A model generated the notes under the pieces. It searched no databases. It saw only the letters and a list, made by a program, of their open reading frames with translations, and was not told the DNA's origin. Shown piece by piece: positions 993 to 61,805 of a stretch of 64,000 bases of DNA. The DNA comes from Escherichia phage MN04. The stretch lies in the sequence record MT129654.1; one strand, 5' to 3'. Made by a program: the position numbers and the translations under genes. Position 1 is the first letter of the stretch, and every line of letters begins with the position of its first letter.

Positions 993-1562
993 ATGAACAT
1001 CGAACAAAAATGTCTTTATCAAGACCGAATCAATTCCAAATTTTCAAAATCTGAACAAGCGTTGTTAGAGAAATGTCTGGATGCCAAAAAAGACCCTAAC
1101 TTCCATTACGACCTAGACAAACTGGTTCGTAAGCATGTCACTTCAGTGGTTCCGGTAGAGCTTTATCGTGGGATTACCACCAGAGAACTTGGGCAATTAG
1201 AGCTCCTTTCAGTAGGATGTCAATGGTCTCCTGGCCGGGTTACTTCTTTTAGTACACAATACTCTCAGGCTTGCCAGTTCGCAGGGTCATGGGAATATGG
1301 AACCAAAACCATTTTAAGTCTCAGGAATGCACCCTTCATTTTTGACTACTACAATCATGCTATCGACCTTGTTCTTGCAGGGAGTGCGGACGAACTTGAA
1401 ATAGATGAAACCCGTATTGACCTCTATGATATGGTCGAAACCGAATGTGAGTTCATGGTCTCTAGCCTATCACGATTTGAGATTGTTGAAATCGAAACTA
1501 TCAAAAGAGACCCATACGACATCGAGTACAAAATAATTCATTTAAAAATGTTGGATTTTTAG
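993..1562 (+). CDS. modB: Mono-ADP-ribosyltransferase, ModA/ModB family (ModB position by synteny)
   Basis: 189 aa; ART triad pattern LYRGI ... TSFST ... ECEFMV (R / S-x-S / E-x-E); tandem with a second ART upstream of srd-dda as in T4. Confidence 0.55.
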   Translation: MNIEQKCLYQDRINSKFSKSEQALLEKCLDAKKDPNFHYDLDKLVRKHVTSVVPVELYRGITTRELGQLELLSVGCQWSPGRVTSFSTQYSQACQFAGSWEYGTKTILSLRNAPFIFDYYNHAIDLVLAGSADELEIDETRIDLYDMVETECEFMVSSLSRFEIVEIETIKRDPYDIEYKIIHLKMLDF

Positions 1563-2368: not shown

Positions 2369-3118
2369 ATGCCTACTATTAAAACTAACGATGAATTTGA
2401 GTTAAAGGTTTACAACCGCCGCAAACACACCAAAGCTTCTGCTTATAAACGCGGTAAGGACTTCAATCTGTCCAGTAAGTATGTTCGTAGACTTCTCGAA
2501 CAAAAAGTGTGCGCTTATTCAGGCGAGTACTTTGATGAAAATTCAGTTAATGATAAGATTTCATTTGAACGTTTTAACAACGATATCGGTTATATTGAGG
2601 GTAATGTAATCCCAGTTAAAGTTAAGTATAACAGCTTACGTGCCGATTTGTCCCTTGATGAACTGAAACGTGCTCAGACTCGTTTAGCAGTTCGTATTTC
2701 AGGTAGTTCTAAAATGCCTAATAGTTTTAAAGTTACTCCTGATAACTATTATAAAATCCGTAAAATCGTTAAAAATATAAAAGATACCCAAAGAGGTCTT
2801 AAAAAACGTGAAAAACGTCTTAAAGACCTTATTAAATCGGGAGCTACTGATAAGACTCCTTCTGTTATCGCGGTTAAGGCCCGTATCCATGGTTCTAACG
2901 CTTCAATAGGTACTATGGAAAAAGGTCTTAAATCTTTAATTGGTGGGCCTGATTGGCGTGTTAAGTTTAAATTGTCTGAAGCAGAAACGCGTTACGATAT
3001 GTATGATAAAATTATTCAAGGTCTGGAGCGTTTAGAACACCTTTCTTTTATTGACAAATTGAAGTTGAAAAAAGGTCTTCCGCTGAATGCTTCAATTTTT
3101 TCACTGATTAGAGGTTAA
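2369..3118 (+). CDS. srd: Srd-like early protein (by size and position between modA and dda.1)
   Basis: 249 aa, same length class and position as T4 Srd; own early promoter; identity not checked by alignment. Confidence 0.4.
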   Translation: MPTIKTNDEFELKVYNRRKHTKASAYKRGKDFNLSSKYVRRLLEQKVCAYSGEYFDENSVNDKISFERFNNDIGYIEGNVIPVKVKYNSLRADLSLDELKRAQTRLAVRISGSSKMPNSFKVTPDNYYKIRKIVKNIKDTQRGLKKREKRLKDLIKSGATDKTPSVIAVKARIHGSNASIGTMEKGLKSLIGGPDWRVKFKLSEAETRYDMYDKIIQGLERLEHLSFIDKLKLKKGLPLNASIFSLIRG

Positions 3119-5725: not shown

Positions 5726-6229
5726 ATGAAAATTTATCGAGTTGAGTCATCGTTCAGTATCTTAGATGATGGAAACGCTATCACAATACGACGAGACCTC
5801 TGTACTCAAATGACTCCGTATAGAAGTACAATGGACTCATGGAGTGAAGGCTGGTTATTGGAAGTAGGTTTCGACAGACCCAATTTTAAGCATCGTCATA
5901 CCATCAATAAAAATATTCCACTACCAAGTCAAGATAAGTTGCTGGTAGAAAATTCTAATAAAACCATTAGAACTAAGTGGAAACGGCCTGATTATGAAGA
6001 CTGTGATGATTATATTCCAGGTTGGTTTGTTAACCTCTACCATTTTGCTTTTGCCAGTGAGTATGATATGATGCGCTGGTTCACTCGTGAAGAGCGTAAA
6101 GAATTATCTTCTAAAGGATTCTATCTTGCCGTTTACGAAATACCTGAAGATGAGGTAGTCATTGGTGACCGCCAAGTAATGTTCCGCAAGTCCCATGCTG
6201 AACTCGTAGATTTTATTGAAATGAGATAA
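5726..6229 (+). CDS. Hypothetical early protein (MotB position by synteny)
   Basis: 167 aa, similar size to T4 MotB (162 aa); position dexA -> motB; no motif evidence. Confidence 0.4.
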   Translation: MKIYRVESSFSILDDGNAITIRRDLCTQMTPYRSTMDSWSEGWLLEVGFDRPNFKHRHTINKNIPLPSQDKLLVENSNKTIRTKWKRPDYEDCDDYIPGWFVNLYHFAFASEYDMMRWFTREERKELSSKGFYLAVYEIPEDEVVIGDRQVMFRKSHAELVDFIEMR

Positions 6230-6231
6230 TT

Positions 6232-6783
6232 ATGAAATTTAATTATAATCCCAAATACACACCGAACCCGGCGGCCAAATTGATTGATTTTGATGTTTTA
6301 AGCACTTATGCAGCCCCTATTGAACCATTAGAAATTAAGGAAACCACTATGACTACTCAGACTATCGAAATCGGTAAAACCTACAAACTGGTTGAACCTG
6401 AAATTAAAACTAAGGCCTTGATTTCTGGTTATAAAACTCTGACTGATGTTTTTGGCGAAGGCGAATTTATTGTTGAAGAATTCGCTAAAAGTGAGTGGTT
6501 TGACAAATCTTACGTCATCCACGGTCGCCGGTTAGATAATAACAAAATAGAGAAAAACCTGGTTTATGAAGATGAATTTGGGCTTTTCCGTGAAGTCGGA
6601 GTCGAACAAGACCCTACAGACCTGTTGTGTGCTGCTGTGGCTATCCGTCGTCCTTTTGATAATCCTATCTGTGGTTGGGTAACAGACCAGTGGATTGAAG
6701 ATGGTGTTGAACTCCTGAACGTTGTACATGCTGGTGATTTTAGCGTAGTACCTCGTAGTGCAGTGGTTAATGTATTGAATTAA
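6232..6783 (+). CDS. Hypothetical protein, paralog A of a tandem pair
   Basis: 183 aa; C-terminal block GWVTDQWIEDGVELLNVVHAGDFSVVP shared with the next ORF. Confidence 0.5.
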   Translation: MKFNYNPKYTPNPAAKLIDFDVLSTYAAPIEPLEIKETTMTTQTIEIGKTYKLVEPEIKTKALISGYKTLTDVFGEGEFIVEEFAKSEWFDKSYVIHGRRLDNNKIEKNLVYEDEFGLFREVGVEQDPTDLLCAAVAIRRPFDNPICGWVTDQWIEDGVELLNVVHAGDFSVVPRSAVVNVLN

Positions 6784-6856: not shown

Positions 6857-7408
6857 ATGATTACTATCGGTGAAATTGTTCGTGTATCCAAAGAATCTCG
6901 CTCAAAAGCCGCAGGTCGTTTTGTTGAAGTTGCAGGTATTCGTACCAATTTAGTAGGTGGAATTAAAGAAGTTAAAGTGCGTATTATTCCTAAAAATGGC
7001 CAGACCGAAACCGAATTTGCTTATGTTCGCCCTAAATTTTTAAAATCGACTGAATTTACCGGATACATCGCTCCTGTAGTTGAAGAAGTTGAATCCCATG
7101 ATGGGTATGTATGTGAAAGCAATGATATTCGCGGCGTAGTAGCTCAAGACGTTGAAACTATTGACCAATCTCATGTCGGCGTTGATTTCAAATGGAAATT
7201 AGGTCGAGGAGTGTGTTTTAATACTCCTAAACCGTTCAAATATGTTGACGAACCTTTTGGTACTTACGAAACCAGTAGCATGTCTGGTTACATCACAGAC
7301 CAGTGGGTTGAAGGTGGCGTTAAGCTCTATAACATCGTGTTCCTTGGAACCTTTAAGGTTGTTCCTGAAAGCTTTATTGTTGAATATGCTAACATTCACC
7401 GTGCATAA
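6857..7408 (+). CDS. Hypothetical protein, paralog B of a tandem pair
   Basis: 183 aa; C-terminal block GYITDQWVEGGVKLYNIVFLGTFKVVP matches preceding ORF. Confidence 0.5.
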   Translation: MITIGEIVRVSKESRSKAAGRFVEVAGIRTNLVGGIKEVKVRIIPKNGQTETEFAYVRPKFLKSTEFTGYIAPVVEEVESHDGYVCESNDIRGVVAQDVETIDQSHVGVDFKWKLGRGVCFNTPKPFKYVDEPFGTYETSSMSGYITDQWVEGGVKLYNIVFLGTFKVVPESFIVEYANIHRA

Positions 7409-7569
7409 AGTTTAAAAAACAGTATACAATACGGTAGGGTAGTGATAAGATTACCCTATCAAAACAAATGAGTGAAATGGAGAATAAAAATGTTTGCACC
7501 TTATATTATGATTACAGTTATCGTTATCTGTCTGTATCTTTTAATTAAAGCTTGTTAAGGAGATTTAAA

Positions 7570-7791
7570 ATGACTACTAAAATCACTGCAAACTCGACTC
7601 GTGAAGAATTTGAAGATGTTCTGTTCAACCCTGATTTAATCGTGGTTCAAAAGGAACATTCTGATACGTTTTCTCATTTATCGTCGGTTTATGTATACGA
7701 AAATCAAGGTGATAAAAACCCTATGTATGCAGTGTTCCGTGAAATCACTGCTGAAGGCACCGACTTCTGGAAGGAAACTTACAATGCTTAA
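7570..7791 (+). CDS. Hypothetical small protein (cef position)
   Basis: 73-aa ORF from ATG 7570 with SD taaggag upstream; T4 Cef is 71 aa at the equivalent position. Confidence 0.35.
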   Translation: MTTKITANSTREEFEDVLFNPDLIVVQKEHSDTFSHLSSVYVYENQGDKNPMYAVFREITAEGTDFWKETYNA

Positions 7792-8287
7792 TCAAGAACT
7801 TGAATTTGAAAAAGGTAAATGGTACTATTTTAAAGATGACGCGGCAGAAGCTGAATTCCGTAAGCTGAATTCCCATAATATTAGGACTCCTAATAATTCT
7901 TCTATAGCAGATATTATTGTCAATTCTGAAGGTTTTTGCCCTGTTAGATTAGCGGCAGGTTATGTGATGAACGTGGACTTGGCTTATGGTGATAACATTG
8001 ATATGGTTTTATATCCAAGCGAGCGTAAATTCTTTACGGAAATGGTTGTAGTTGACAGTGAAGACGAATGGGCCGAAGATGGTTTTTCTGAAGAAGACCG
8101 GTCTGAACCGAGTGATTTCCCTTTGACTAAAATCACTATGGAAATGGGTTTAGTTGGCGGTGAAGACCAGTCTGAAGACGCAGCCCCATATGAACCGAGT
8201 GATTTCCCTTTGACTAAAATCACTATCTCCAATAATTCTGAAGCCTGGACTGTTTACCGGATGTTGAAAGCCCACTTTAAGGAATAA
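7784..8287 (+). CDS. Hypothetical acidic protein with internal tandem duplication (goF position)
   Basis: 167-aa ORF from ATG 7784; contains duplicated peptide EPSDFPLTKIT encoded by a perfect 35-bp direct repeat. Confidence 0.4.
   Translation: MLNQELEFEKGKWYYFKDDAAEAEFRKLNSHNIRTPNNSSIADIIVNSEGFCPVRLAAGYVMNVDLAYGDNIDMVLYPSERKFFTEMVVVDSEDEWAEDGFSEEDRSEPSDFPLTKITMEMGLVGGEDQSEDAAPYEPSDFPLTKITISNNSEAWTVYRMLKAHFKE
8105..8226 (+). repeat. Intragenic direct repeat (2 x 35 bp perfect, period 87 bp)
   Basis: gaaccgagtgatttccctttgactaaaatcactat at 8105-8139 and 8192-8226. Confidence 0.85.
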
Positions 8288-36515: not shown

Positions 36516-36542
36516 GGGAAGACTTCGGTCTTCCCTTTTTGG
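36516..36542 (+). terminator. Rho-independent terminator after gene 32
   Basis: gggaagacttcggtcttccc hairpin followed by tttttgg. Confidence 0.75.
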
Positions 36543-36551
36543 CATTTAATG

Positions 36552-36580
36552 GTTTACAATGCCTTTAAACATGATACTAT
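36552..36580 (+). promoter_or_regulatory. T4-type early promoter
   Basis: GTTTAC 36552-36557, TACTAT 36575-36580. Confidence 0.6.
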
Positions 36581-36609
36581 AGTCCTATCAACTACATGAG
36601 GAAATAAAA

Positions 36610-36981
36610 ATGGAAATTGGTAAATTTTACGTATTAGACCCTGCTGCCAAAAAACAATTCATCGCTGGTAGTCCTGATGATAATTATAATTCGTGCATAG
36701 TAAGATTGTTGGAACAACATGGCAATTCCTTCAAAGTCCTGGATATGAGTTATATTGAAGGTGATTATTTTGTTGAAAAAGTTGAAATGAAAGATGGCAC
36801 CATCCTGAATAGTATGGGCGGTGCTGATGAGTACTTTGAACTCGGTGAATGGGAATTCTGTCACTTCCTGGAAGTTGATGGCGATGCTCCTGCCGTTGAT
36901 ACCCAAACTATCCATGTACAGGTAAACCACAAAAATGCGGCAGAAGTTGTTGCCTTGATTAAAGCTACCTTTGGAATTTAA
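36610..36981 (+). CDS. Hypothetical protein, paralog A of a tandem pair
   Basis: 123 aa; MEIGKFYVL ... EYFELGEWEFCHFLEVDGD shared architecture with next ORF. Confidence 0.5.
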   Translation: MEIGKFYVLDPAAKKQFIAGSPDDNYNSCIVRLLEQHGNSFKVLDMSYIEGDYFVEKVEMKDGTILNSMGGADEYFELGEWEFCHFLEVDGDAPAVDTQTIHVQVNHKNAAEVVALIKATFGI

Positions 36982-36983
36982 AA

Positions 36984-37367
36984 ATGAAAATTGGTAAAAA
37001 ATACGAACTTCGCCCTGAGTGTATCAAAGCTTTTATTAATATCACCCCTATCAATAATAATGATATGGTCGATATTATCCAAGAAAACGGCGGGTGGTTT
37101 GAAGTAAAGGATACAATGACCACAGATGGGGATAAATTTGTAACTAAAATCAAATGTGCTAATGGCAAGATTTTTAGTGCAGATGGAACACTAGAGGAAT
37201 ATTTTGAATTGCATGAAGATGAGTTCTATTGCTTCCGTGAATATGATGGACAAGATGAAGTTGACAAACCTGTTACTAAGACCGGCGTGACCCAAATCCA
37301 TTGCATTGTCACTGAACAGAACGTCGACCAAATTATTGAACTTTTGCAAAAAACTTTTAAGGCCTAA
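36984..37367 (+). CDS. Hypothetical protein, paralog B of a tandem pair
   Basis: 127 aa; MKIGKKYEL ... EYFELHEDEFYCFREYDGQ. Confidence 0.5.
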   Translation: MKIGKKYELRPECIKAFINITPINNNDMVDIIQENGGWFEVKDTMTTDGDKFVTKIKCANGKIFSADGTLEEYFELHEDEFYCFREYDGQDEVDKPVTKTGVTQIHCIVTEQNVDQIIELLQKTFKA

Positions 37368-37368
37368 C

Positions 37369-37629
37369 ATGACTAAAGATGATTTCCTGGATGCAGTAGA
37401 AAAAGCCAGTGAGAAATTTGAAGTGATGGGTGTACGAGTTCATAAAGACCGAAATTACGGCCTCGATATCCAAACGTATTCGTTATGGCTTGTAGGCGAA
37501 CATAGTCTTGTAACCACCTTAGTTATGGGTGTTGATGCTCAACCCTTACTGGTTAAATTCAGAAGTATGGAAAAAGCTACCAAAGAAATGATTAAACTTG
37601 GTAAATGGCTTGATAAAATTCAAAAATAA
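37369..37629 (+). CDS. Hypothetical protein
   Basis: 86-aa ORF from ATG 37369 (track begins at upstream TTG). Confidence 0.4.
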   Translation: MTKDDFLDAVEKASEKFEVMGVRVHKDRNYGLDIQTYSLWLVGEHSLVTTLVMGVDAQPLLVKFRSMEKATKEMIKLGKWLDKIQK

Positions 37630-37631
37630 AT

Positions 37632-37660
37632 GTTTACAAGGTCTATAGGCATGATACTAT
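37632..37660 (+). promoter_or_regulatory. T4-type early promoter
   Basis: GTTTAC 37632-37637, TACTAT 37655-37660, flanked by palindrome aggtctatag / ctatagacct. Confidence 0.6.
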
Positions 37661-37692
37661 AGACCTATCAACTAACGAGTGAGGAAAATAAA

Positions 37693-38473: not shown

Positions 38474-38474
<1 letters not shown>
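38229..38474 (+). CDS. Hypothetical protein
   Basis: 81-aa ORF from ATG 38229 preceded by catgaggaaaatataatg. Confidence 0.4.
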
Positions 38475-39595
<1,121 letters not shown>

Positions 39596-57590: not shown

Positions 57591-59678
57591 ATGACCGAAC
57601 AATTAAATGAAGTGTTTGAGTCCGAAGGCACCCTGCCTACTGTAAACTTAAACCCAAAACTTAAAGTACCCCAGATTTGGAAGATTGGCGACGCCGAATC
57701 CCAATTAGTTGCTCGTATGGTATCTTATGCCTCTGAAGGCGATGCTATTAAACAGGTTAAATTAGGTGATAAATATGCCCACGTTATTTTGATGAGTTTA
57801 TCAGCTAAAGGTACTCCAGCCGAACTTAAAGGTGGATTAGGCCCTACTCCTATTGATGCTATTAATACCATTTTCGACGTAGTATTCGAACAAGTTAAAA
57901 AGCTTCGTATGGATGCTGTGATGTTCCGTTTTCCAACCAAGAAAATGAAAGGACAAGGACCTATTGTCCAACGGATTATCCAACGTTTGGTAGCACAGAA
58001 AACCGGTGGACGTTTTAAAGTAGTTCCAGCCATGTACCAATTTACCGGTAAACATACTTATATCCTAGTAGTTCGTAAACAAGCTGATATCGAAGATATC
58101 AAAGGTATGCCTGGAATTAATGCCGAATTATATACTAAGGTAGATTCTGATGTTGGTGAAGTTTATATTTCTAAAAAAGAAGGCGCTCAGGTTACTAAAG
58201 AAACCGCTATTGCCGGCAGTATTGCTAAAGTTGAAGAACGTCGCACTGATAAAATGGTTATAACCAAGACTAAGATTTCTCGTCGTGCGATTGCGGCAAG
58301 CCAGTCATTAGAAGCAGACCGTAATGAAGGTGAATTATTTCAGAAATATGAACAAACTGCCAATGAGTTCAGTGCGCCTGCTACGGCGGAATTAATTCCA
58401 CAAGCAGCCGAAGTTGAATTATCATTATCATCCGAAACAGCTAAGGATAAGCTGGCTACGGCTATTGATTTTAAAATTTATAATACTATGGATGATTCAT
58501 TTAAATTTGCGGATGAAGTTTCTTACGGTGATAAAATTAACTCTTCTTTAGAAAAATTTGTCAAAAAAATTAAAAATGAAAAAACCACGTCAGTTAAAGC
58601 TTTAGCCGCCTTTGTTGAAGCTGCTAATGAAATCGCAGAATCTATTAAAAGTGATTGGTTTGAAGATTATAGAAAAGACAATTTCCATTTGGAAAAAGAG
58701 ATATTGAATGAAAACAGTGAAAGAGTATGGAAACAACGTAAGTCTTCATTCTTGTCTAAGATAATGTATACATACGCTATAGAATCAACTAGAGAAATTC
58801 TTAATATAACAACATCTCGAGACCCTAAACAATATACACTTGCAGAAAAACGAGCTATCAGAGAATACGCCTCTTCAGCTTATATTGATATTAACAATGT
58901 CCTTCTTGGCCGTTATAAACCGGGCTTTTATGAAGTTTTGGACGAAAGCGAAGTTAAACGTGCTATTGATGGAATGGATTCTGCCTTTAAAAATGGTGAC
59001 CGTTTACCTGAAGGAATAATGGTTTATAGAGCACAATCTTTGCGCGCGCCTATCTACGAAGCATTAGTTAAAAATAAGGTATTCTATTTTAGAAACTATG
59101 TTTCAACCTCATTGGCTCCAATCATTTTTGGTGGCTTTAAAGAGAATGCGGCTATTGGTCTTGCTTCCGATGATGTTCGAAAAGAATTAAACATTGATAA
59201 TAATGACGAAGGCGTTACCATCTCTGCTAGTCAAGTGCGTACACATATGTATGCGCCGGATCAAATCCGTGTTGATGTTGGCTGGGCTATTAGTGGCGCT
59301 CATAAGGTTAACGTGATTTATCCTGGCCAATTAAGCATGCATGCCAACGAAAAGGAAATAATTTTACCACGCGGGCTACTTGTAAAAATAGATAAAATCG
59401 TGGATGCATCAGCCAATACTGGTTCTGGGGCGGTTTCTAACAATAAATTTATTCAAGCTGAAGTTATGACATCAGATGAGCTTCAAGAATCTGTAGTGTA
59501 TGATGGTGACGTACTAATGGAAACCGGTGAGTTGGTCGTATACCAAGATGACTTCGATACTTCCGAAAGCCCTGTATCTTTTGATTCATTTGTTAAATCT
59601 ACACGGTTTGACGTACTGCCTCTTTTGGCTTCATGCATAGACCTCTATGGCATACCAGAAAAATTCATCCAAGGGTAA
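57591..59678 (+). CDS. alt: Alt-type ADP-ribosyltransferase (virion-injected), copy 1
   Basis: 695 aa (T4 Alt 682 aa); C-terminal ART pattern MVYRAQ ... YVSTSL ... EKEIILPRG; position downstream of ligase as in T4. Confidence 0.8.
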   Translation: MTEQLNEVFESEGTLPTVNLNPKLKVPQIWKIGDAESQLVARMVSYASEGDAIKQVKLGDKYAHVILMSLSAKGTPAELKGGLGPTPIDAINTIFDVVFEQVKKLRMDAVMFRFPTKKMKGQGPIVQRIIQRLVAQKTGGRFKVVPAMYQFTGKHTYILVVRKQADIEDIKGMPGINAELYTKVDSDVGEVYISKKEGAQVTKETAIAGSIAKVEERRTDKMVITKTKISRRAIAASQSLEADRNEGELFQKYEQTANEFSAPATAELIPQAAEVELSLSSETAKDKLATAIDFKIYNTMDDSFKFADEVSYGDKINSSLEKFVKKIKNEKTTSVKALAAFVEAANEIAESIKSDWFEDYRKDNFHLEKEILNENSERVWKQRKSSFLSKIMYTYAIESTREILNITTSRDPKQYTLAEKRAIREYASSAYIDINNVLLGRYKPGFYEVLDESEVKRAIDGMDSAFKNGDRLPEGIMVYRAQSLRAPIYEALVKNKVFYFRNYVSTSLAPIIFGGFKENAAIGLASDDVRKELNIDNNDEGVTISASQVRTHMYAPDQIRVDVGWAISGAHKVNVIYPGQLSMHANEKEIILPRGLLVKIDKIVDASANTGSGAVSNNKFIQAEVMTSDELQESVVYDGDVLMETGELVVYQDDFDTSESPVSFDSFVKSTRFDVLPLLASCIDLYGIPEKFIQG

Positions 59679-59681
59679 ATA

Positions 59682-61805
59682 ATGGAAAATTTAAACGAAG
59701 TTTTTGATAGTGATTCCGCTAAAAACTATCCAGTAACAAATCTTAAGCCGGGCTCCGGTATCCCACAGATTTTCTCTATCCAAGCACCAGGTAACGATAA
59801 CCTGGTTGCTCGTATGGTATCTTATGCGTCTCAAGGAGACGCTATTAAAATGGTTAAGCCAGGCGACAAATATGTCCATGTTATTTTAATGAGTTTGTCG
59901 AGCAAGGGTGCTCCAGCCGAACTCAAAGGTGGTCTTGGTTCCGACCCACTTGGTGCATTGAATACTATTTTTGATACGATATACGAACAAGTAAATAAAC
60001 TTAAAATGGATGCGGTTTTGTTCCGTTTCCCTACCAAGAAAATGAAAGGTAAGGGCCCTACTGTTCAGCGTGTATTAGCTCGTTTGGCGATGGCACGTAC
60101 CGGTGGTAAGTTTAAAGTTGTCGATGATATGTTCCAGTTTAGTGGTAAACATACATACGTTCTTTTAGCACGTCGTGGCACTAATATCGAAGATATCAAG
60201 GGTATGCCTGAAATTGATGCGGACCTTTATACCAAGGTTGAGTCTAAAGTCGGTGAAGTTTATGTTTCTAAGAAAACCGGCCAGGCCGTAAGTAAGGTCG
60301 AAGCCGTAGCGGCATCTATTGCACAGGTTGAAGAGAAACGTACCGATAAGGCTGTTATCTCTCGTACTAAAATTTCCCGTCGTATGGCTGCAGCAGCGCA
60401 GTATTCTACTGCCGAACCTGAAACTTTATCACCTAAAGAATTGCAGGTTTATAACGAGTTTGAAGCTTCTGTCCCTGTTCACTCGGCCGAAGGCCCTGAG
60501 AACGAAGGTATTGAGCAGATTAGTCAGAACTTTAAAAAAGGTGCTATTACTAAAATGCGTCAGGCCTCTCAGTTTAAATCTAAGAGTGAGGACCTTGCCA
60601 ACTTTAGATACACCATTGCTCTCACGCACGCTTTAATGACTGATAGTAAATTTAAACTAAATTATGCTAATAGAGATAAACAAGGGTTTGAAATTTACTC
60701 TAATAATATGGCATTTTTTAATACGGAAGTCGATAGACTTTTAAGTGGCCTTTCTCAAATCAATACTACCAATAGTCTGGATATTATTAAGAGAATTGTT
60801 AATAACCTGAGTGCCCGTTTTCAGGGGTCTCCTTCAGAGAAAGCATCCCGAATTGCTTTCGCTATGGAAGCCGTTTATAAACTGATTAACGATTCTATTA
60901 GCGATGCATATGCTTATTCAGGCGAGCTCATTAAACCTAAGGGCTTGACCAAAGACGAAAGTAATGCCATTATTGAATATTGTGCGGCTGAATATGCTCC
61001 TATGAACTTATTCCTTTTAGGTAAACCTGAATCCGAAAACAATACAACAGCTATTAAATTGATTAAGGATTTAGACTCAGCATTTACCAAGGGTATTAAA
61101 CTTCCTAAGGGTACTATTTTGTATCGTGGTCAGGATTTACCATACAAAATTCTGCGCCATAATATTGATAACAAAACATTTTACTTTAAGAACTTTGTGT
61201 CCGCTTCATTAAAGCCTAATATCTTTGGCGAATTTGGTAAAAATTATATGGCCCTCGACAACCAAGCAGTTTTTGTTGGCGATGAAGGTTCTTTATCCTC
61301 CGCTGATGAGTTGTTTAAATTAGCCAGTGGTAGTTCATCTGATGTAGGCGAAGTTGATGATGAAGAGGTAGAATGGGAAGAAGACGAGTTCGGTAATCCA
61401 ATTGCACCTGAAGGCCCTGCAGACAGGATTGCTGAAATCGGTATGGTTATTCGAGGTGCTGAAGCAGTTAAAGTTATCGCTCCTGGTGACCTTACAGAAT
61501 ATTCCGAAGAAGCAGAAATTATCCTTCCGCGAGGATTATTGTTGAAGGTTGATAAAGTAGCGGCTTTTGCTATGAATGATAGAGTATCTCACAAATACCT
61601 TATGGAAGCTACAGTGACATCTCCTTCAGAACTCAGTGGGTCCGTTTACGATGGTGACCATCTGATGGAAACCGGTGAAGTTAAATTGATGAATGGGTTT
61701 AAAGAATTCCTAGTTTCAGAATCTGTTTCAGAAAGTAATGAGGCTATGGAAATCCTTGCTGCATCTTTGGACATCTCTTCTTTACCAAATAAATTCAAAA
61801 TGTAG
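59682..61805 (+). CDS. Alt-type ADP-ribosyltransferase, copy 2 (tandem paralog)
   Basis: 707 aa; N-terminal ~230 aa near-collinear with copy 1; C-terminal ILYRGQ ... FVSASL ... EAEIILPRG. Confidence 0.75.
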   Translation: MENLNEVFDSDSAKNYPVTNLKPGSGIPQIFSIQAPGNDNLVARMVSYASQGDAIKMVKPGDKYVHVILMSLSSKGAPAELKGGLGSDPLGALNTIFDTIYEQVNKLKMDAVLFRFPTKKMKGKGPTVQRVLARLAMARTGGKFKVVDDMFQFSGKHTYVLLARRGTNIEDIKGMPEIDADLYTKVESKVGEVYVSKKTGQAVSKVEAVAASIAQVEEKRTDKAVISRTKISRRMAAAAQYSTAEPETLSPKELQVYNEFEASVPVHSAEGPENEGIEQISQNFKKGAITKMRQASQFKSKSEDLANFRYTIALTHALMTDSKFKLNYANRDKQGFEIYSNNMAFFNTEVDRLLSGLSQINTTNSLDIIKRIVNNLSARFQGSPSEKASRIAFAMEAVYKLINDSISDAYAYSGELIKPKGLTKDESNAIIEYCAAEYAPMNLFLLGKPESENNTTAIKLIKDLDSAFTKGIKLPKGTILYRGQDLPYKILRHNIDNKTFYFKNFVSASLKPNIFGEFGKNYMALDNQAVFVGDEGSLSSADELFKLASGSSSDVGEVDDEEVEWEEDEFGNPIAPEGPADRIAEIGMVIRGAEAVKVIAPGDLTEYSEEAEIILPRGLLLKVDKVAAFAMNDRVSHKYLMEATVTSPSELSGSVYDGDHLMETGEVKLMNGFKEFLVSESVSESNEAMEILAASLDISSLPNKFKM

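Follow-up and report, generated by a model that had tools for sequence, protein, structure and literature searches.

Gene content of the gene 32–frd interval

The window analysed here is a stretch of 64,000 nucleotides from Escherichia phage MN04 (MT129654.1). In its variable gene 32–frd interval lies a three-gene module, frd.2a–frd.2b–X86, of the type found in the Dhakaviruses JS98 and JS10. frd.2a and frd.2b encode acidic proteins of ~14 kDa each and are located 3' of gene 32 and 5' of frd.3, frd.1 and frd; the third gene, an 86-aa ORF here called X86, belongs to PHROG 4423. The first-pass annotation had placed two ORFs with a 2-nt gap at these positions, within the accessory region that separates gene 32 from frd; both the coordinates and the location proved exact. 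The genes and the signals around them are as follows.

36516..36543, + strand: gene 32 intrinsic terminator, GGGAAGAC-TTCG-GTCTTCCC with a T run after it; supplies the stem-loop of a cassette like the PeSLs (promoter-early stem-loops)
36547..36594, + strand: early-promoter cassette, copy 1, with TTTACA-16-TACTAT and an upstream TG at 36553-36580 (sigma70 promoter scan)
36598..36602, + strand: Shine-Dalgarno of frd.2a, GAGGA, read from the sequence
36605..36643, + strand: direct repeat D2, copy 1, comprising the RBS spacer and first frd.2a codons (TAAAAATGGAAATTGGTAAA...); marks the left edge of the 2a indel
36610..36981, + strand: frd.2a, 123 aa, pI 4.5; Frd.2 family (Pfam PF03197), a type
36979..37017, + strand: direct repeat D2, copy 2, comprising the frd.2a stop, the 2-nt A-run spacer and first frd.2b codons; right boundary of the indel
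36984..37367, + strand: frd.2b, 127 aa, pI 4.7; b-type member of the Frd.2 family
37369..37629, + strand: X86, 86-aa ORF (PHROG 4423), last gene of the module
37627..37674, + strand: early-promoter cassette, copy 2, serving frd.3, with its promoter at 37633-37660; right bound of the module

The genes are tightly packed: frd.2a and frd.2b are joined as TAA-AA-ATG, and X86 starts 1 nt past the frd.2b stop (TAAcATG). Read-through or fusion of frd.2a and frd.2b was ruled out by their different frames and the TAA stop between them. An antisense ORF at 36634-36930 (98 aa) was taken as spurious, since it lies wholly within frd.2a.

frd.2a and frd.2b are paralogues of the Frd.2 family

Both genes belong to the Frd.2 family (PF03197, PHROG 622), in which they are old paralogues; their relationship, first proposed from short motifs, was confirmed by alignment and profile searches. 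BLASTP of frd.2a against frd.2b gave 47/127 identities (37%) over the full length with E=1e-23, and an all-against-all BLASTP of the window ORFs also found the pair (E=3e-21). Pfam PF03197 (FRD2, gathering score 29) was matched with 113 bits by frd.2a and 132.7 bits by frd.2b, spanning model positions 1-95 of 96, and PHROG 622 with E=2e-31 and 1e-39, respectively. The motifs quoted in the first-pass annotation, MEIGKFYVL and MKIGKKYEL at the starts and EYFEL..E.EF..F.E internally, are real and fall on invariant or nearly invariant family columns (G4, K5 and Y7; Y73, F74, E75, L76, E78, E80, F81, F84 and E86). FRD2 was the only Pfam family retained for either protein at E<=1, a P-II match with E=0.21 being discarded as noise. 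At E<=1, a search of the locus against Rfam yielded a group I intron as its sole match, rejected at 15.5 bits against a threshold of 50.

The names frd.2a and frd.2b are present in the records of JS98, JS10 and SP18, so the pair is a known and annotated feature. Other labels borne by family members, 'putative peptidase inhibitor' in phage Nami and 'endonuclease VII' in phage P8, could not be substantiated.

The Frd.2 family is narrow. An exhaustive profile search of 1.84 billion representatives returned 55 clusters at E<=1e-3, and the matches were almost all proteins of 112-138 aa. Several very long proteins, with many short matched stretches, were also among the 55 clusters; these were assumed to be compositional. 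Word-indexed homologue searches recovered close relatives only (20, 32 and 59 proteins). By tblastn against 50,697 phage records, at least two Frd.2-family copies were found in about 80. Copy number ranges from 1 to 3 per genome. Acidity is a constant property, with a pI of 4.1-4.7 and 21-31 D+E versus 9-15 K+R in 18/18 members examined.

When the Frd.2 HMM was applied to the six-frame ORFs of the window, it matched frd.2a, frd.2b and, weakly, one further site at 6220-6780 (E=0.0099). By hhalign, the Frd.2 profile showed no significant match to the window's ORFs at the GoF position (probability 0.5%) or the MotB.1 position (15%). These ORFs are linked to Frd.2 only by the broader PHROG 622 model, the PHROG that contains both goF and frd.2 of T4.

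Expression signals of the module

The gene 32 terminator, which precedes the module, forms a hairpin at 36516-36535 with an 8-bp GC-rich stem; the 101-nt stretch has a folding z score of -3.2 against shuffled controls (RNA fold), and the terminator is invariant in dhabil, IME341 and WG01. It is followed by the sigma70 match at 36553-36580, and the + strand scan gave no further match before 37633. The first-pass annotation had placed both genes behind a single early promoter, and one match 5' of the pair with none up to 37633 fits that reading at the level of sequence. GTTTAC with an extended -10 is reportedly the T4 early-promoter pattern, as described by Miller et al. 2003. The context of the frd.2a Shine-Dalgarno, tGAGGAAAtaaaaATG, recurs at frd.3 (repeat family D4) and 5' of frd.2 genes in other phages.

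The promoter cassette is repeated on the far side of the module. Repeat D1, a 48-nt direct repeat (36547-36594 versus 37627-37674, 83% identical), flanks frd.2a–frd.2b–X86, and its second copy contains a perfect 10-bp hairpin at 37639-37666, between the -35 and the -10 (z=-3.8, RNA fold). From this layout we infer that the sigma70 early promoter at 36553-36580 would drive co-transcription of frd.2a, frd.2b and X86 right after infection, and that their translation may be coupled across the 2-nt and 1-nt gaps.

frd.2a is bounded by a repeated gene-start motif

When the window was aligned with dhabil, IME341 and WG01, frd.2a stood out as a clean 374-bp indel. Its ends coincide with the D2 repeat, whose 39-nt copies are 77% identical, spaced by exactly 374 nt, and made up of the RBS spacer and first codons (TAAAAATGRAAATTGGTAAA...). 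The left end falls in the RBS/start region just 3' of the promoter cassette, and the right end at the frd.2b start, where there is no PeSL. A start-region motif of ~20 nt (RBS spacer plus M-E/K-I-G-K codons) is common to all family members. The 70 nt 5' of frd.2a in the window precede frd.2b in the single b-copy loci of dhabil and IME341, with one mismatch. The a/b spacer measures 4 nt in JS10 versus 2 nt in the window, an A-run length polymorphism. A hybrid start of 2a in the window (MEIGK versus mostly METGK in a-type genes) was weighed as a clue to the direction of the event and judged too weak, as other a-type genes also have MEIGK or MKIGK.

The arrangement of copies varies among relatives. 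The Dhakaviruses dhabil, IME08 and WG01 have the b-type gene only; JS98, JS10 and the window have the order a–b–X, and IME341 has b–X–frd.3–a. In Gapriverviruses the a-type gene follows either frd.3 or the b-type gene. In both IME341 and the Gapriverviruses the a-type gene has its own, different early promoter, with a hairpin. Gelderlandvirus UTK0003 has an a-then-b tandem, in which, unlike in the window, a 21-nt spacer carrying a separate RBS forms the junction. In Dhakavirus, Gaprivervirus and RB51, X86 lies directly 3' of whichever frd.2-type gene comes last, with 92-100% amino acid identity. Each copy is dispensable in some relatives.

Divergence of the a and b lineages

frd.2a and frd.2b share 39% amino acid and 51% nucleotide identity, and their dS is saturated (1.7; pairwise Nei-Gojobori). 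Megablast with frd.2a DNA hit 62 records at one place each, and frd.2b was never matched. Orthologues of either copy are considerably closer, at 60-92% identity versus the 51% at nucleotide level between the neighbours. The nearest relatives of frd.2a are Gaprivervirus genes (85-92%, or 77-92% when related unclassified phages are included), followed by the first Gelderlandvirus copy (64-66%); to Tequatrovirus frd.2 it is only about 31-35% identical (tblastn). frd.2b is 61-64% identical to T4 Frd.2 over the full length, depending on the aligner, 52-62% to the lone frd.2 gene carried by many Tequatroviruses, T4-type phages included (tblastn), and 62% to the second Gelderlandvirus copy.

A neighbour-joining (NJ) tree was built from Frd.2-family ORFs taken by the family HMM from 16 loci. 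One clade, a, contained 2a of the window and of JS10, the second IME341 gene, SP18, UPEC07, VR25, pEC-M719 and the first UTK0003 gene. The b clade contained the Dhakavirus genes (2b of the window and of JS10, dhabil, IME341, IME08 and WG01) with T4, along with the first gene of SP18, UPEC07 and pEC-M719 and the second UTK0003 gene. Further types were represented by RB51, two genes in ATK47, three in Vequintavirinae phage A7_1, CIP9 and JD18. A comparison with the T4 gene 32–frd interval, proposed at the outset, places the single T4 frd.2 in the frd.2b clade, at a different site, after frd.3. Since closer relatives of each copy are found in other genera, the a and b lineages split before those genera did, and the duplication is older than them. 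The a lineage circulates among Dhaka-, Gapriver- and Gelderlandviruses, and frd.2b shares the lineage of T4 frd.2.

Synonymous divergence differs sharply between the backbone and parts of the interval. Between the window and Gapriverviruses, dS was 1.2-1.4 for gp32, above 2 for frd and 2.6-2.8 for 2b, compared with 0.33-0.46 for 2a, 0.33-0.40 for frd.3 and 0.22-0.26 for a 113-aa ORF at 38474-38815. Within Dhakavirus (window versus IME341) it was 0.12 for gp32 and 0.40 for 2a. Against the Gelderlandvirus a–b tandem the values were 1.56 and 1.09, with 1.32 for gp32. The mismatch between 2a and gp32 places 2a off the backbone phylogeny, which suggests lateral exchange of accessory cassettes carrying it.

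Purifying selection maintains both copies, and neither resembles a decaying duplicate: dN/dS versus orthologues was 0.09-0.16 for frd.2a and 0.10-0.28 for frd.2b, as simple pairwise Nei-Gojobori estimates.

Predicted fold

AlphaFold2 models of both proteins, built with a 35-sequence alignment, had pLDDT values of 87.8 (2a) and 85.2 (2b), above 90 over most of the barrel. Both are predicted to follow the order b1-a1-a2-b2-b3-b4-(a)-b5, after which an acidic linker of low confidence leads to a conserved strand and helix at the C terminus. The models thus describe an acidic, five-stranded SH3/Tudor/LSm-like barrel with a two-helix insert, a variable linker and a strand-helix unit.

In a Foldseek search of BFVD, the 2b model gave 54 matches at E<=1e-3, all from phages, including GoF (E=4.8e-6) and T4 MotB.1 (E=1e-4); these compare prediction with prediction. 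Against the PDB, neither model had a match at E<=0.001, the best being YorP (0.15) and FABP (0.25), and a search of PDB sequences with the family profile returned noise only. The fold class consequently rests on the predicted models and their weak PDB neighbours, mostly protein-binding barrels (the UvrD/PcrA and 53BP1 Tudor domains, chromo domains, FeoA and YorP). Hfq, Sm and LSm proteins were absent from the top 50 Foldseek PDB matches of either model, and neither protein had an LSM, Hfq or Sm match in Pfam at E<=1. [quoted passage not shown] 2025 (PMC12152347), and our models independently reproduce that assignment at the level of predicted structure.

Origin of the tandem

How the two genes came to be neighbours can be read in several ways. 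The first-pass annotation had proposed a local duplication, and its premise of true paralogy stands. The adjacency on one strand, similar length, 2-nt spacing and common start motif would all suit a tandem duplication that arose recently in the JS98/JS10 lineage, with very fast divergence afterwards. That origin is nevertheless very improbable: the paralogues are ancient, with saturated dS and no megablast-level DNA similarity between them, their orthologues in other genera are far closer than the neighbouring copy, and 2a occurs elsewhere, with its own promoter, in IME341 and the Gapriverviruses. An ancestral a–b tandem that was simply retained has more in its favour. On that account, 2a was lost by deletion between the D2 repeats in dhabil, IME08 and WG01 and rearranged in Gapriverviruses, with no insertion in the JS98 lineage. 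Such a deletion would yield the exact dhabil structure, the a-then-b order also occurs in Gelderlandvirus UTK0003, where the divergence is like that of gp32, and retention with losses accounts for part of the data equally well. Against it, the dS of 2a is about the same within Dhakavirus (0.40) as to Gaprivervirus (0.33-0.46), where gp32 rises from 0.12 to 1.2-1.4; the Gelderlandvirus junction differs in its spacer and RBS; and 2a of the window uses the promoter that serves 2b elsewhere. We regard retention as possible but rather doubtful.

We lean instead towards cassette shuffling, in which 2a would have come to separate frd.2b from its resident promoter/RBS, the 2a unit being gained or lost by recombination across the ~20-nt start-region motif. 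Taken as a whole, the explanation that old a and b paralogues were brought together by cassette shuffling, are co-expressed early and serve as binding proteins in host takeover is the one we judge somewhat probable.

Possible role of the pair

For the last part of this explanation, we propose that Frd.2a and Frd.2b may be non-catalytic modules that dock on a host or phage protein of transcription or RNA turnover during takeover, with the two diverged copies providing two specificities or pairing as a hetero-oligomer. The proposal draws on the early promoter, small size, acidity, non-catalytic barrel with protein-binding neighbours, deep types and 1-3 copies per genome. The lack of any catalytic family among the Pfam matches at E<=1 favours a binding module over an enzyme. 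Such a role, with a transcription or RNA-turnover target and distinct specificities or mutual pairing, is put forward tentatively, as an idea we would sooner doubt than assert; the partner and pathway are a guess by analogy with the GoF(D25Y) phenotype.

T4 phages with amber mutations in frd.2 plate normally (PMC12152347). In the CRISPRi-ART screen of T4, frd.2, which is widely conserved among the early genes of T4-type phages, was the sole function-unassigned gene scored 'Fit', on a marginal call (0.83, p=0.027, versus 3.29 for gene 32), and among the guides listed no individual frd.2 guide was called Fit. An RNA reporter responded little to GoF and MotB.1 in their wild-type form; stabilisation of RNA was confined to the gain-of-function GoF(D25Y).

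The hypothesis of Kim et al. 2025 is that the proteins are LSm/Hfq-like RNA chaperones, forming rings or hetero-rings that bind host or phage RNA directly and alter its stability. The predicted five-stranded bent barrel speaks for it, as does the structural relationship to GoF, a protein whose D25Y form stabilises gene 41 mRNA. The strong acidity (pI 4.1-4.7) argues against direct RNA binding, however, no Hfq or Sm protein was among the top 50 Foldseek PDB matches or the Pfam matches at E<=1, and the GoF effect is described as a gain of function, wild-type GoF and MotB.1 leaving the reporter nearly unchanged; we therefore consider a chaperone role quite unlikely. An anti-defence function is somewhat less so, though still unlikely in our estimate. 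The proteins would act as acidic decoys or inhibitors of host immunity proteins; in favour of this, they are early, small, acidic and dispensable, and an arms race could explain their several deep types and variable copy number, with 1-3 copies per genome, at least two in about 80 records and frequent lateral exchange. Evolution within each type is conservative rather than diversifying, however (dN/dS about 0.1-0.2), and a literature search turned up no published anti-defence phenotype.

A bolder version of the binding role, which we offer as a long shot, is that Frd.2a, Frd.2b and the unusually conserved X86 form one early hetero-oligomeric complex of paralogous barrels, comparable to eukaryotic LSm rings, that acts on host RNA turnover, transcription or defence. 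If so, an arms race over target specificity would have left its traces in the deep types, 1-3 copies and cross-genus exchange. More practically, a two-copy locus with separate, selected types is a handy system in which to test for different targets. The locus is also a small, clean case of T4-type accessory reshuffling by way of very short homologous stretches at the starts of genes and at promoter cassettes; apart from these uses it is ordinary and already annotated.

Comparison with known systems

The GoF/MotB.1/Frd.2 family of Kim et al. 2025 (PMC12152347) resembles the Frd.2a and Frd.2b models in its predicted architecture of N-terminal barrel, linker and C-terminal unit. The link claimed for that family with bona fide Sm/Hfq proteins was not reproduced by Foldseek.

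The promoter cassettes recall the PeSLs defined in RB49/phi1 (PMC2839356), cassettes in which a terminator and an early promoter, together with very short homologies, lead to modular shuffling in the hyperplastic regions of T4-type phages (Arbiol et al. 2010, PMC2839356). As in those cassettes, a terminator hairpin stands beside a predicted strong early promoter and repeats flank a small non-essential module in a hyperplastic region with gene content that varies between close relatives. The 2a indel differs in being bounded by the RBS/first-codon motif of the paralogues rather than by two PeSLs.

T4 has one frd.2 copy, located after frd.3 and without the 86-aa ORF. Its product is like that of frd.2b in size, acidity, early expression, position in the gene 32–frd interval and clade, whereas it is only 33% identical to that of frd.2a, which belongs to a separate clade.

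The window belongs to a Dhakavirus, and its closest counterparts are JS10 (EU863409) and JS98 (EF469154) of that genus, in which the 1.3-kb locus is 99.2% and 98.0% identical at the DNA level, respectively; the window differs slightly from both and is identical to neither. The frd.2a/frd.2b labels of SP18 are swapped relative to those of JS98. The JS10 record labels both genes 'Frd.2 conserved hypothetical protein', and the encoded proteins are 100% (Frd.2a) and 99.2% (Frd.2b) identical to those of the window. In the JS10 record td follows frd. The gene order 32–2a–2b–86-aa ORF–frd.3–frd.1–frd is common to JS10, JS98 and the window.

Exchange of frd.2b and the a/b junction

Pairwise Nei-Gojobori estimates were used to compare frd.2b, the downstream member of the tandem pair that follows gene 32, with its neighbors. 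Between the window (36984-37367) and the related phage dhabil (2711-3094, within the compared locus), dS for frd.2b was 0.41, while the flanking genes gave values of 0.02 (gp32), 0.10 (the 86-aa ORF) and 0.10 (frd.3). Since frd.2b is far more diverged than its flanks, we conclude that the b gene, too, was exchanged or replaced within the genus. At the a/b junction (36979-36983 in the window, compared with 3080-3086 of the JS10 locus), the two genes are separated by an A run whose length varies, 2 nt in the window and 4 nt in JS10, and this length difference is the only indel at the junction between the two phages. Gene names clash between records: in SP18, the gene named 'frd.2a' is of the T4-like b type, and that named 'frd.2b' is of the JS98 2a type.

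Variant architectures and spread of the Frd.2 family

Frd.2-family genes in other phages (coordinates within the compared locus)
SP18, 2073-2435 and 2501-2866: Frd.2-family genes
VR25, 2178-2435: 85-aa protein, the Frd.2 N-terminal barrel alone
pEC-M719-6WT.2, 2501-2932: longer a-type gene, 143 aa
Mosigvirus ATK47, 2501-2860: unannotated Frd.2-family ORF
Escherichia phage A7_1 (Vequintavirinae), 1742-2116, 2128-2487 and 2498-2875: three Frd.2-family genes in tandem

The VR25 protein matched positions 1-87 of the family HMM (E=2e-16) and gave a Foldseek TM of 0.93 over the target; its gene lies immediately 5' of the full-length a-type gene. In pEC-M719-6WT.2, the C-terminal segment of the a-type protein was matched twice by the family HMM (positions 91-121 repeated), which suggests that the linker and C-terminal unit were duplicated within this gene. 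The ATK47 ORF (family HMM E=7.5e-31) follows the terminator of gene 32 and precedes the frd.2 gene annotated in that phage, and thus ATK47 also carries a tandem pair, with one member absent from the annotation. The three genes of A7_1, a phage outside Straboviridae, indicate that the family has spread past the T4-like phages and multiplied independently there.

The 86-aa ORF and further paralogues in the window

Features of the window
993-1559 and 1617-2228: tandem paralogue pair
6232-6783: 183-aa ORF just 5' of motB, the T4 motB.1 position
7784-8287: goF-position ORF, between cef (7552-7791) and gene 39
37369-37629: 86-aa ORF, PHROG 4423
57591-59675 and 59682-61802: tandem pair encoding large proteins, 695 and 707 aa

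The 86-aa ORF always lies directly 3' of the last frd.2-type gene, with a gap of 1 nt, whether the preceding gene is of the b type (Dhakavirus), a type (Gaprivervirus) or RB51 type (RB51). Its amino acid identity between genera is 92-100%, compared with 64-74% for gp32 in the same genera. Its product may act together with Frd.2; alternatively, the ORF may be a cassette that spread recently.

The products of 993-1559 and 1617-2228 share 31.5% identity over 184 aligned aa (E=9e-25), and each is similar to PHROG 832, 'RNA polymerase ADP-ribosylase', in the C-terminal part of that family. The first-pass annotation had called the frd.2 genes a second tandem pair, and this may be the 'first' that it implied. 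The 695- and 707-aa proteins are 41% identical over 734 columns; both contain the ADP-ribosyltransferase domain PF03496 and are therefore Alt-like paralogues.

Two further ORFs occupy the positions of T4 goF and motB.1, whose products share the predicted barrel fold of Frd.2. The goF-position ORF matched PHROG 622, the same PHROG as Frd.2 (E=5.6e-24), has a Frd.2-like C-terminus, and contains an internal direct repeat in which EPSDFPLTKIT is present twice. The 183-aa ORF contains a weak Frd.2/GoF-like segment that includes IEIGKTYKL (PHROG 622, E=5e-4), and its C-terminal ~40 aa share 47.5% identity with the end of the MotB protein (6857-7408), likewise at the C-terminus.
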